From sequence record OL631481.1: a stretch of 64,000 bases of DNA. The stretch is one strand, 5' to 3'. Within the stretch, counting starts at the first letter, position 1. Each line of letters opens with the position of its first letter. The position numbers were made by a program, and so were the translations under genes. The notes beneath the pieces were generated by a model that saw nothing but the letters and a program-made list of their open reading frames with translations, was not told the DNA's origin and ran no database searches. Origin of the DNA: Escherichia phage ECML-183-2. Shown here piece after piece: positions 42,146-44,132 of this stretch.

Positions 42146-42224
42146 TGGAGGCGGGAATTGGATTTGAACCAATGATCTCCAGCATATGAAACTGGCGAGG
42201 ACGACCAGACTCCTCTATCCCGCT
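42146..42224 (-). tRNA. tRNA-Met (anticodon CAT)
   Basis: Hand-folded cloverleaf; anticodon loop TTCATAT; T-arm ATTGG-TTCAAAT-CCAAT; encoded CCA; 1:72 mismatch. Confidence 0.55.
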
Positions 42225-42228
42225 ATTA

Positions 42229-42300
42229 TGTATCCCGTGCTGGATTCGAACCAGCATCACAAAAATTGTGGATCTCTTATCCTGTAAGTCTAACGGGAAA
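42229..42300 (-). tRNA. tRNA-like element, degenerate (anticodon arm unresolved, no encoded CCA)
   Basis: Canonical T-arm GCTGG-TTCGAAT-CCAGC and 6-bp acceptor stem, but body about 4 nt short and no 5-bp anticodon stem found. Confidence 0.3.
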
Positions 42301-42301
42301 C

Positions 42302-42375
42302 TGGTTGTTTCGACAAGAATCGAACTTGTGTCTCACGATTATCAGTCGTGGGTTCTACCATTGAACTACGAAACA
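42302..42375 (-). tRNA. tRNA-Ile (anticodon GAT)
   Basis: Anticodon arm CACGA-CTGATAA-TCGTG; acceptor TGTTTCG/CGAAACA; encoded CCA. Confidence 0.65.
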
Positions 42376-42438
42376 TTTAAAAGAATATCTCACGTCTGAT
42401 ACAGACTAACCTTTTGTCTGACGCATGAAATATTTAAT

Positions 42439-42515
42439 TGGTCGGAATTGCAGGATTCGAACCTGCGACCCTACGCTCCCAAAGCGTATGCTCTACCAAA
42501 CTGAGCTAAATTCCG
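42439..42515 (-). tRNA. tRNA-Pro (anticodon TGG)
   Basis: Cloverleaf CGGAATT...; anticodon arm TACGC-TTTGGGA-GCGTA; T-arm GCAGG-TTCGAAT-CCTGC; encoded CCA. Confidence 0.7.
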
Positions 42516-42520
42516 TTATA

Positions 42521-42596
42521 TGGCTGGTCTGTCTGGATTTGAACCAAACCTACGACAGTCAAAGTGTCGTGTGCTACCGGACTACACTACAAACCA
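42521..42596 (-). tRNA. tRNA-Gln (anticodon TTG)
   Basis: Anticodon arm CGACA-CTTTGAC-TGTCG; acceptor TGGTTTG/CAGACCA; encoded CCA. Confidence 0.6.
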
Positions 42597-42694
42597 ATAA
42601 ATCATTTAATGAAGGGCAACCAGAAGAAGTGTGAGAGAAGGAGAAAACCATGAGTAAAAGAGAAAGTTTTCTGGCAACCCTTTATTAAATAATT

Positions 42695-42771
42695 TGGAGC
42701 GTTATATCGGATTCGAACCGATGCCACCGACTTGGAAGGACGGGATGCTGAACCGCTAACACTAATAACGC
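42695..42771 (-). tRNA. tRNA-Gly (anticodon TCC)
   Basis: Anticodon loop CTTCCAA; acceptor GCGTTAT/ATAACGC; T-arm ATCGG-TTCGAAT-CCGAT; encoded CCA. Confidence 0.6.
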
Positions 42772-42784
42772 TTTGTATATATTT

Positions 42785-42814
42785 ACTATACTACATTTTA
42801 CTATCGAATGTCAA
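42785..42814 (-). promoter_or_regulatory. sigma70-like promoter (AACTATTGACA-N18-TATAGT) inside tRNA cluster
   Basis: Minus-strand -35 at 42809-42814, -10 at 42785-42790; tRNA-Gly 5' end at 42771. Confidence 0.45.
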
Positions 42815-43089
42815 TAGTTATTTAATAGGTGGGACAGTGACGAGTATCCCTTTGGGTGACTAGCCCTACGTTCGGTAAGCTAACTTAAAATAATACAAAA
42901 CCAAAGTCAAATATTATTCTTCGTTGCTGTCGATGGGAGAGCCGCTTCTTCTTTTGCCCCATCCAACCCTACTCCGGTCAAGTTTCAGGTAACTCTTTGT
43001 GTGATCAACACAATACTAAGAACACTGTCTTTCGAACAGACCTTGTGCACAGGATACGACGATCAATCACAGTGCCCTTAATGTTGTGT

Positions 43090-43164
43090 TGGTGCTCCCA
43101 CTCTGAATCGAACAGAGATCCACGGATTACAAAACCGTTGTAATAGCCATTATACTATAGGAGC
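43090..43164 (-). tRNA. tRNA-Thr (anticodon TGT)
   Basis: Anticodon loop TTTGTAA; acceptor GCTCCTA/TGGGAGC; T-arm CTCTG-TTCGATT-CAGAG; encoded CCA. Confidence 0.6.
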
Positions 43165-43170
43165 AAAGCT

Positions 43171-43248
43171 GGGACTCGGCAGGATTCGATACCTGCAATT
43201 CCAGAAGCCTCTTGGCGACTGGGGGGTTTACCTTAACTCTACAAGTCC
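43171..43248 (-). tRNA. tRNA-like element, degenerate (8-nt T-loop, no canonical anticodon arm, no encoded CCA)
   Basis: Acceptor GGACTTG/CGAGTCC and T-arm GCAGG-TATCGAAT-CCTGC present; exhaustive scan of the body found no 5-bp stem with 7-nt loop. Confidence 0.3.
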
Positions 43249-43255
43249 ATAATTC

Positions 43256-43341
43256 TGGCGATGAGTATAGGATTTGAACCTATATCGTTCTTTCGAACAC
43301 GGATTAACAGTCCGCCGCTTAAACCATTCAGCCAACTCATC
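43256..43341 (-). tRNA. tRNA-Asn (anticodon GTT) with expanded 15-nt variable region
   Basis: Anticodon arm GCGGA-CTGTTAA-TCCGT as recalled for E. coli tRNA-Asn; extra hairpin GTTC-GAAA-GAAC in variable region; encoded CCA. Confidence 0.5.
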
Positions 43342-43347
43342 TTAATT

Positions 43348-43435
43348 TGGTGGTGAGTGATGGAGTCGAACCACCCGAATCGCAATGATAACAGATTTAC
43401 AGTCTGCCCCGCTACCCCTACGGAATTAACTCACC
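43348..43435 (-). tRNA. tRNA-Tyr (anticodon GTA), long variable arm
   Basis: Anticodon arm GCAGA-CTGTAAA-TCTGT; acceptor GGTGAGT/ACTCACC; 88 nt; encoded CCA. Confidence 0.65.
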
Positions 43436-43565
43436 TAAATGCTAATATTTAAATTCTTTTTAAAATAGCCAGTGTTCACACCACTAACTATGAGGTATCG
43501 GTAAAGTGGTTACCGCCACTTGCCGAAGATTTACTCTGCTAAAGTAAGCTATATTAAAAAGAACT

Positions 43566-43651
43566 TGGCGGTAGATGTAGGACTCGAACCTACACGCCGT
43601 TTCCGACTACAGTTTAGCAAACTGTCGTGGCTACCATTTCACCAATCTACC
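43566..43651 (-). tRNA. tRNA-Ser (anticodon GCT), long variable arm
   Basis: Anticodon arm ACAGT-TTGCTAA-ACTGT; variable hairpin GTCG-GAAA-CGGC; encoded CCA. Confidence 0.6.
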
Positions 43652-43655
43652 AATC

Positions 43656-43746
43656 TGGCGGAAGGAGGGAGAGTCGAACTCCCAAGGCTCTTTCAAGCTC
43701 GGCGGTTTTCAAGACCGTTTTCGTCGCCACGTCGATTTGCCCTTCC
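43656..43746 (-). tRNA. tRNA-Ser (anticodon TGA), long variable arm
   Basis: Anticodon loop CTTGAAA with ACGGT/ACCGC stem; acceptor GGAAGGG/TCCTTCC; 91 nt; encoded CCA. Confidence 0.55.
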
Positions 43747-43754
43747 ATACTTAT

Positions 43755-43784
43755 AATCTAACATAAAATAATGTTAGTTGTCAA
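43755..43784 (-). promoter_or_regulatory. sigma70-like promoter (AACTATTGACA-N18-TAGATT) inside tRNA cluster
   Basis: Minus-strand -35 at 43779-43784, -10 at 43755-43760; tRNA-Ser 5' end at 43746. Confidence 0.4.
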
Positions 43785-43980
43785 TAGTTTTTTAAAACAT
43801 TTTACCATGAATGGTGACTCCACCAACCCCCGTTCTCAGCGAACGGTGCTCTTCGAGCATTTATGTCTTCTAATATAACCGTGGCCTTTGTTTATAATGT
43901 CTGACATACTTACCTCATTCTCTGCCACCATGATCAGTAGTGGGTTCAAATCACTTGAGCTAATTCATGTTAAAATGTTC

Positions 43981-44055
43981 TGGTGTCTTTACAAGGAATC
44001 GAACCTTGACTAAGAGTTTAGAAGACTCCTGTGCTATCCATTACACCATAAAGAC
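43981..44055 (-). tRNA. tRNA-Arg (anticodon TCT)
   Basis: Anticodon arm GGAGT-CTTCTAA-ACTCT; T-arm CAAGG-TTCGATT-CCTTG; encoded CCA. Confidence 0.65.
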
Positions 44056-44057
44056 GT

Positions 44058-44132
44058 TGGTGGCCCTGGCTGGTTTCGATCCAGCTACCTATCGGTTATG
44101 AGCCGACAGCTCTCCCATTGAGCTACAGGGCC
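44058..44132 (-). tRNA. tRNA with CAT anticodon, Ile2 (lysidine)-like or elongator Met
   Basis: Anticodon loop CTCATAA; acceptor GGCCCTG/CAGGGCC and T-arm GCTGG/CCAGC resemble E. coli tRNA-Ile2 from memory; encoded CCA. Confidence 0.6.

Follow-up and report, generated by a model that had tools for sequence, protein, structure and literature searches.

The DNA analysed here is a 64,000-nt stretch of Escherichia phage ECML-183-2 (sequence record OL631481.1; hereafter the window), which carries a cluster of transfer RNA (tRNA) genes on its minus strand at 42146-44132. Which purpose does this cluster serve? In the original prediction, the tRNAs were proposed to compensate for the codon usage of the phage and possibly to replace host tRNAs depleted by defence nucleases. 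Our analysis makes it very likely that the locus is the tRNA cluster of a virulent phAPEC8-like (Phapecoctavirus) coliphage, in which codon supply is the main effect and counter-defence a secondary, unproven one.

Identity of the tRNA cluster

The window was searched with ARAGORN and with the Rfam covariance models, in which the gathering threshold is 29 bits for tRNA (RF00005) and 47 bits for tRNA-Sec, and the annotation of the related phage vB_EcoM_ASO2A (GenBank MZ726793; hereafter ASO2A) was consulted. Taken together, these sources bore out the predicted 12 minus-strand tRNA genes, down to the outer coordinates of the cluster. ARAGORN with default settings recovered 10 of the 12 genes at exactly the outer coordinates listed below, and 11 of the 12 scored above the RF00005 threshold (39-72 bits, E values of 1e-4 to 8e-14). 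The anticodons of all 12 genes are those originally assigned and are also those of the ASO2A annotation, including Ile-CAT for 44058-44132. Each of the 12 genes ends with a discriminator base followed by an encoded CCA, as had been claimed. The tRNA genes and two tRNA-like elements lying among them are listed in minus-strand order.

44058..44132, minus strand: Ile2-like tRNA (CAT), 75 nt, CCA encoded; ARAGORN, Rfam 64.5 bits
43981..44055, minus strand: tRNA-Arg (TCT), 75 nt, CCA encoded; ARAGORN, Rfam 66.3 bits; anticodon loop identical to that of argU
43656..43746, minus strand: tRNA-Ser (TGA), 91 nt, class II, CCA encoded; ARAGORN at relaxed threshold, tRNA-Sec clan 37.4 bits
43566..43651, minus strand: tRNA-Ser (GCT), 86 nt, class II, CCA encoded; ARAGORN, Rfam 56 bits
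43348..43435, minus strand: tRNA-Tyr (GTA), 88 nt, class II, CCA encoded, T5-type variable loop; Rfam 39 bits
43256..43341, minus strand: tRNA-Asn (GTT), 86 nt, long variable arm, G73, CCA encoded; ARAGORN, Rfam 62 bits
43171..43248, minus strand: tRNA-like RNA resembling T5 rna3, without CCA; Rfam 28.3 bits
43090..43164, minus strand: tRNA-Thr (TGT), 75 nt, CCA encoded; ARAGORN, Rfam 59.5 bits
42695..42771, minus strand: tRNA-Gly (TCC), 77 nt, U73, CCA encoded; ARAGORN, Rfam 51 bits
42521..42596, minus strand: tRNA-Gln (TTG), 76 nt, U1:A72, G73, CCA encoded; ARAGORN, Rfam 54.9 bits
42439..42515, minus strand: tRNA-Pro (TGG), 77 nt, C1:G72, A73, CCA encoded; ARAGORN, Rfam 70.8 bits; 79% identity to proM
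42302..42375, minus strand: tRNA-Ile (GAT), 74 nt, CCA encoded; ARAGORN, Rfam 72.2 bits
42231..42299, minus strand: tRNA-like element or pseudo-tRNA, without CCA; Rfam 28.8 bits
42146..42224, minus strand: initiator-like tRNA-Met (CAT), 79 nt, U73, CCA encoded; ARAGORN, Rfam 50.1 bits

Tyr(GTA) was not recovered by ARAGORN with default settings, and its Rfam match extended over 43351-43435. Ser(TGA) was the weakest member of the set. It was recovered by ARAGORN at a relaxed threshold only, and its sole Rfam match was the sub-threshold one to the tRNA-Sec clan. A tRNAscan-SE annotation of this gene exists in ASO2A (98% identical), and its identity to E. coli serT is 71%; the anticodon loop matches that of serT exactly, and the acceptor stem does so nearly.

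The 12 tRNAs had been described as canonical. This description suits their anticodon loops and 3' ends, since all 12 have a 7-nt loop with U33 and a purine at position 37, in addition to the CCA. It does not suit two of the bodies. Acceptor stems of 7 bp were found throughout the set, with an A1xC72 mismatch in the Met gene as the sole exception. Moreover, class II architecture (a variable region of more than 10 nt that forms a stem-loop, and a 3-bp D stem) was found in Ser(TGA), Ser(GCT), Tyr and, unexpectedly, Asn. The U73 of Gly, the U1:A72 and G73 of Gln, the C1:G72 and A73 of Pro, and the G73 of Ser and Asn match what we take to be the features of these isotypes. Since CCA is encoded and these acceptor and discriminator features fit, charging by the host synthetases would be expected.

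The CAT anticodon of the tRNA at 42146-42224, predicted as Met, was confirmed, but the tRNA does not resemble an ordinary elongator. Its best host match was the initiator gene metZ (68%), whose GCGGG at positions 2-6 it shares, and it carries A11:U24 as well as A1xC72. It was 68% identical to the "initiator tRNA fMet" of phage T5 and 90% identical to the tRNA-Met of phage phi92, and the mismatch is kept in these phages with different bases (AxC in the window, UxU in T5, CxU in phi92). The lack of a Watson-Crick 1:72 pair is thus an initiator feature that this tRNA possesses. The further initiator features, three G:C pairs at 29-31:39-41 and A73, were not found in it (stem CCAGU/GCUGG, U73); the T5 tRNA annotated as initiator likewise lacks the three anticodon-stem pairs. 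By these features the tRNA appears to be initiator-like rather than an elongator, and it is not a proven initiator. The second CAT tRNA, at 44058-44132, retained its Ile2-like label. Its best host match was ileX (76%), with an identical loop, its acceptor stem begins with GGCCC and includes C4:G69 and C5:G68, and the tRNAscan-SE call in ASO2A is Ile-CAT. Both of these pairs are determinants recognised by TilS.

Over a 3-kb region covering the locus, dozens of Escherichia phages showed 97.5-98.8% identity; they belong to the genus Phapecoctavirus, which comprises myoviruses of about 150 kb in the Stephanstirmvirinae. In ASO2A the same 12 tRNAs are annotated in the same order in 98% identical DNA, and the two phages differ in the spacers between Ile and Pro and between Pro and Gln, which are 63 and 5 nt long in the window and 6 and 93 nt long in ASO2A. 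The 63-nt spacer following Ile(GAT) corresponds to 42376-42438 on the minus strand, and phage Mt1B1_P17 carries neither this spacer nor the 93-nt one of ASO2A. A relative, nepoznato, has an HNH endonuclease gene in this part of the genome. A second GenBank record lists 11 tRNAs, two of which, the counterparts of CAT (42146-42224) and of GTA, are flagged as pseudo, and the genome papers on Phapecoctavirus report 10-11 tRNAs per genome. This spread in the published counts results from the weak scores of Tyr, Ser(TGA) and the odd Met. Since MZ726793 annotates the same 12 tRNAs, the cluster is already known and is an annotated standard feature of a well-sampled genus of therapeutic phages. The cluster brings no novelty of its own and neatly illustrates how the tRNA set of a phage matches its codon excess. 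A 69-aa plus-strand open reading frame (ORF) at 42425-42634 was treated as spurious; it lies antisense to the Pro and Gln tRNAs.

Codon supply and counter-defence

The codon usage of 77 window ORFs (18,395 codons, 29% GC at third codon positions) was compared with that of 42 annotated E. coli K-12 genes (14,748 codons, 57% GC at third codon positions). The codons most enriched in the phage were AGA (6.2-fold), ACA (5.7-fold), AUA (4.7-fold), AGG (3.8-fold), CCU (3.3-fold), GGA (3.2-fold), ACU (2.8-fold), UCU (2.7-fold), AGU (2.6-fold), AAU (2.2-fold), and UAU (2.1-fold). All 11 can be read by the 12 tRNAs under standard bacterial wobble (hypergeometric P = 1e-5), and a rank test of readability against enrichment over all codons gave a Mann-Whitney p of 0.002. 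The set covers 41.6% of the phage codons, compared to 32.3% of the host codons. Furthermore, the relative synonymous codon usage of AGA, AUA, and GGA was 1.42, 0.67, and 1.12 in the structural late block, which is co-oriented with the cluster (2941-41938, minus strand), and 0.82, 0.37, and 0.81 in the replication block (45591-63720, plus strand). Therefore, codon-usage compensation held in this direct test, since the 11 most enriched codons are all readable and the late block makes higher use of AGA, AUA, and GGA, the three host-rare codons that the set had been said to favour.

The cluster would thus add decoders (for AGA/AGG, ACA/ACU, AUA, GGA, CCU, UCU, AGU, AAU, and UAU) for A/U-rich codons that are 2- to 6-fold more frequent in the 39%-GC phage than in E. 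coli. The extra tRNA supply may keep translation fast, chiefly that of the adjacent structural genes. Several points weigh against this reading. UUA, CUU, UGU, GUU, and GAU are enriched 1.6- to 2-fold, yet no phage tRNA reads them. The reading of U-ending codons by tRNAs with U34 presupposes the cmo5U modification by the host. In addition, the comparison draws on a single 50-kb sample of E. coli and on ORFs that were called mechanically.

It may be asked whether the cluster is instead kept mainly as a counter-defence against nucleases (AriB of PARIS, PtuAB of retron-Eco7/Septu, VapC-like and colicin-like nucleases), with the codon match as a by-product of AT-richness. We consider this rather unlikely, although individual members fit it. 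Thr(UGU) and Asn(GUU) are AriB targets, AriB cuts the final bond of UAAUC-A, and the exchange A41C strongly lowers the cleavage of tRNA-Lys (PMC12409363). The Thr(UGU) of the window bears this exchange, as its positions 36-41 read UAAUC-C, compared to UAAUC-A in E. coli. PtuAB cuts the variable loop of host tRNA-Tyr, and the T5 loop has been reported to confer resistance (PMC13096335, PMC11555353). The Tyr of the window shared 81% identity with T5 tRNA-Tyr across 102 nt (E = 4e-18) and bears a T5-type variable loop; its variable region reads TATCATTGCGATTCG (also UAUCAUUGCGAUUCG), that of T5 TGTCATTGCGACTCG (also UGUCAUUGCGACUCG), and that of E. coli CGTCACAGACTTCGA (also CGUCACAGACUUCGA). The strong dedicated promoters of the cluster, described below, parallel the strong-promoter strategy reported for T5 tRNA-Tyr (PMC11555353). 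In the initiator-like Met, positions 32 and 38 of the loop and bases all along the anticodon stem deviate from metZ. The deviating positions include 38 and 39, where enteric VapC cuts.

When the anticodon stem-loops were compared with those of the E. coli K-12 counterparts, however, the anticodon loops of 9 of the 12 tRNAs were identical to the host's, and the Asn anticodon arm was identical to that of asnT at 17 of 17 positions. With most stem-loops the same as or close to the host's, these tRNAs would be cut too. Therefore, most members would supplement the host pool rather than resist cleavage. Moreover, tRNA-Lys, the prime target of PARIS (PMC12409363) and of PrrC, is absent from the 12-gene cluster. 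These observations count against a strong counter-defence part. Finally, the set follows the phage codon excess closely, which a role against nucleases alone does not predict for Arg-UCU, Ile2, Gly-UCC, Pro, and Ser.

Codon supply is hence retained as the main effect. The proposed replacement of depleted host tRNAs survives in part: it is plausible for Tyr with its T5-type loop and for Thr with A41C, but the host-identical loops and the lack of a Lys tRNA speak against it for the set as a whole. As judged from sequence, a counter-defence role is plausible for some members only. Tyr, Thr(UGU) with A41C, the long-arm Asn, and the initiator-like Met are the members that may sustain translation under a tRNA-cleaving defence.

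The long-variable-arm tRNA-Asn and its viral relatives

Of the leads at this locus, only the tRNA-Asn with a long variable arm, together with its viral relatives, merits pursuit. Ser, Leu, and Tyr tRNAs normally have a long variable arm; Asn tRNAs do not. The tRNA encoded at 43256-43341 has a 7-bp acceptor stem, a 5-bp T stem, a 3-bp D stem, G73, and a variable arm GUUC-GAAA-GAAC with three unpaired bases (GAT). Outside the anticodon arm, BLAST detected no counterpart of it in 5,426 E. coli genomes other than a chance match in yobD. Therefore, there was no host donor of the long-arm Asn among them.

How would such a tRNA be charged? In E. coli, the GUU anticodon and G73 suffice to transfer Asn identity (PMC9976931), and both of these identity elements of the E. 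coli asparaginyl-tRNA synthetase are present here. It is also conceivable, though improbable, that the tRNA is charged by the seryl-tRNA synthetase (SerRS) according to its body, like the allo-tRNAs and the nematode nev-tRNAs, and would insert Ser at AAC/AAU. The long variable arm, G73, G1:C72, the 3-bp D stem with C11:G24, and the Ser-like D loop all suit SerRS, and a single base change turns GCU into GUU. However, G2:C71 is absolutely conserved in E. coli tRNA-Ser, and bacterial tRNA-Ser requires G1 and G2 (PMC9976931), whereas pair 2:71 is A:U here, so that the SerRS identity set of E. coli is incomplete in this tRNA. The anticodon arm is that of asnT. Furthermore, this is the sole Asn tRNA of the phage, and Asn codons make up 5.7% of the phage codons. 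Among 95 related viral Asn genes described below, G73 was found in 87 and U1, as in E. coli asnT, in 60, while G1 and G2 occurred together in just 12. Because of these family features, charging with Asn via the anticodon and G73 appears more likely than charging with Ser.

Both allo-tRNAs and nev-tRNAs share with the window Asn a long arm on the anticodon of a normally short-arm isotype, as well as G73. The allo-tRNAs, the closest described structures that we found, occur in soil bacteria; their D arms are Sec-like, and their acceptor and T stems follow an 8/4 or 9/3 geometry (Mukai et al. 2017, PMC5389517). The long-arm Asn of the window differs from them by its 7/5 geometry and by its many relatives with Asn-like U1/G73 ends, which are apparently enriched in viral contigs. 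We also considered whether the T5 tRNA-Asn used in the PARIS rescue is of the long-arm type. This was rejected, as the T5 gene encodes a 78-nt class I tRNA and the long-arm form occurs in some T5-like phages only (for example AKFV33); therefore, the published PARIS rescue says nothing on the long form.

Related long Asn genes were detected by blastn in phi92, in Klebsiella and Salmonella myoviruses, and in some T5-like phages. In our locus labels, the relatives of the window gene are L004 2501-2585, L003 279-361, and the IMG/VR loci L006-L125. The stem of the arm differs between lineages by paired changes (GUUC/GAAC, GAAC/GUUC, GUC/GAC). IMG/VR was then scanned for a pattern of a GUU anticodon loop followed by an over-long spacer. 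Among the 124 matches listed, at least 101 were called tRNA-Asn by ARAGORN (79-92 nt), with at least 94 distinct sequences, and 13 of 15 sampled loci were supported by Rfam at 34-61 bits. Applied to 185,579 cellular genomes, this pattern yielded at least 9 Asn calls among the 120 matches listed, two of which look like archaeal intron-containing genes. The contrast between viruses and cells (101/124 versus 9/120) thus concerns the composition of the matches listed, not frequencies. When both arm lengths were admitted in an unbiased scan, the viral tRNA-Asn genes among the matches listed comprised 108 short and 12 long forms, so that about 10% were long.

The 95 related Asn genes had longer variable-region stems (3.51) than their shuffled versions (2.84 +/- 0.08). 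Every pair of the variable stem uses at least four Watson-Crick pair types within the family, and 39 of 50 tetraloops were of the GNRA type. A short and a long Asn gene occurred together at 29 of 99 loci. Long forms of Thr-UGU, Lys, Met/fMet, Cys, His, Asp, Ile, Glu, and Pro also occur in viral tRNA clusters; they made up 7.8% in clusters with a long Asn and 2.5% in those without, a threefold difference. Examples from IMG/VR are an 87-nt Thr-UGU in a T5-like phage (L033), Lys-UUU (L081 and L075), Met-CAU (L010 and L059), and Cys (L050 and L080). No single donor isotype emerged: the nearest neighbours among 1,833 other viral tRNAs were split between class I Asn (23), class II Lys (20), class II Ser (19), and class II Tyr (18). 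An origin by a simple anticodon shift, from Ser(GCU) or Tyr(GUA) to GUU, is conceivable.

The long-arm tRNA-Asn class appears to be diverse and virus-enriched. No description of a long-variable-arm phage tRNA-Asn was found in the open-access literature, which is weak evidence of absence. We tentatively suggest a broader interpretation, for which the chances seem somewhat below even. The long-arm tRNAs might form a large, apparently virus-enriched and undescribed class with 7/5 geometry, made of short-loop isoacceptors that gained a long, usually GNRA-capped arm, the arm being kept since it alters recognition by host factors. It might let the tRNA escape defence nucleases, with charging still directed by the host-identical anticodon arm and G73. 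If the arm evades tRNA-cleaving immunity or shifts synthetase identity, it would represent a structural move in the tRNA arms race that is new, and orthogonal tRNA scaffolds could readily be drawn from the long-arm viral tRNAs.

Predicted transcription units, tRNA-like elements, and related clusters

Three promoter-like sites, a terminator-like hairpin, and two structured RNA regions accompany the tRNA genes.

44343..44377, minus strand: promoter-like site P1, AACTA-TTGACA, 18-nt spacer, TG-TAGGAT; 10/12 consensus, extended -10
44133..44338, minus strand: structured leader RNA, about 200 nt, separating P1 from the first tRNA; minimum free energy -78 kcal/mol, z = -5.4
43795..43980, minus strand: structured spacer RNA between Arg and P2; minimum free energy -52.3 kcal/mol, z = -3.25; 10-bp closing stem
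43755..43789, minus strand: promoter-like site P2, AACTATTGACA...TG-TAGATT; ends a few bases before Ser(TGA)
42785..42819, minus strand: promoter-like site P3, AACTATTGACA...TATAGT; 11/12 consensus; 13 nt before Gly
42003..42030, minus strand: terminator-like intrinsic hairpin (42030-42012), AGCCTCC-TTATT-GGAGGCT followed by a T run; closes the cluster

P1-P3 are of the sigma-70 type, with a perfect TTGACA, an 18-nt spacer, and in most cases an extended -10 element. The 11-mer AACTATTGACA, which combines an upstream extension with the perfect -35 box, occurs in only three exact copies in the window (44367-44377, 43779-43789, and 42809-42819, minus strand). All of them lie in the cluster, and each heads one tRNA sub-operon. 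The three units are leader-Ile2-Arg under P1, Ser-Ser-Tyr-Asn-(tRNA-like)-Thr under P2, and Gly-Gln-Pro-Ile-(tRNA-like)-Met under P3. They would be transcribed by the host sigma-70 RNA polymerase, and host RNase P and 3' processing presumably free the tRNAs. A rho-independent terminator is annotated in ASO2A at the place equivalent to the hairpin that closes the cluster. A sub-threshold Rfam match to RyhB (29.4 vs. 55 bits; 42005-42059, minus strand) overlaps this hairpin and probably reflects the hairpin and U run only.

The leader has a 16-bp closing stem, and none of 200 shuffles folded equally well. Neither the leader nor the spacer between Arg and P2 matched an Rfam family. These two RNAs may be analogues of the stable RNAs of T5 and T4.

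The two elements without CCA both fell just below the Rfam tRNA threshold. The element at 43171-43248 has an 8-nt T loop and an expanded anticodon arm, and resembles the T5 "rna3, putative tRNA-like RNA", which occupies the same position relative to tRNA-Asn and is annotated in T5 as a stable RNA. An rna3-like element lies directly after tRNA-Asn in three unrelated groups, the T5-like, phi92-like, and phAPEC8-like phages (the T5 copy at 5878-5950 of L256, another at about 2590-2660 of L004), and its acceptor and T stems differ among the three lineages via paired changes that preserve the pairing. The element at 42231-42299, between Ile(GAT) and Met, was found by ARAGORN at a relaxed threshold only. 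Its anticodon loop is Val(CAC)-like but for C33, its D loop is short, and its acceptor end has U1xU72; a counterpart in phi92 was not found. An isotype affinity was sought for both elements, and none was detected.

Common to the cluster and phi92 are the Ser-Tyr-Asn-(tRNA-like)-Thr core, the long-arm Asn, and a Met of 79 nt that is mismatched at 1x72, whereas phi92 has additional Lys, Leu, and Phe tRNAs and small ORFs. T5 is alike in having many tRNAs amid stable or tRNA-like RNAs (rna1-3, RNAI/III/IV) and several dedicated promoters. The window and T5 share the Tyr type (81%), the fMet type (68%), Ile2, and the rna3-like element after Asn. T5 differs by its 24 tRNAs, including Lys, and by HNH endonuclease genes. 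Roles of T5 tRNAs against PARIS and against the retron have been proven (PMC12409363, PMC11555353).

With its rna3-like and second tRNA-like elements, structured spacers, three promoter-like sites, and terminator, the locus has the make-up of a cluster of the T5/T4 kind. The T4 cluster is compact and comprises 8 tRNAs and the stable RNAs C and D, small stable RNAs being co-transcribed with the tRNAs. Its set decodes host-rare codons with Arg-UCU, Ile, Gly-UCC, Thr-UGU, Pro-UGG, Gln-UUG, and Ser tRNAs, as does the set described here. Some T4 tRNAs lack an encoded CCA, unlike those of the window. To our knowledge, T4 has no Asn, Tyr, Met, or Ile2 tRNA, and its sequences are unrelated to those of the window at the BLAST level.

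That several members are decaying pseudogenes or functionless, horizontally acquired neutral hitch-hikers might be suspected from the "pseudo" flags on CAT and GTA in one GenBank record and from the two CCA-less elements, but is hardly credible, because all 12 tRNAs keep intact stems, U33, purine 37, CCA, and isotype-fitting acceptor features, the flagged tRNAs resemble their phi92 and T5 counterparts with differences that preserve base pairs, and even 43171-43248 retains its helices through paired differences across three phage lineages.

Downstream of the cluster on the minus strand lie the terminase, portal, major head, sheath, tail, and tailspike genes, and the divergent plus-strand block includes genes for DNA ligase and ribonucleotide reductase.

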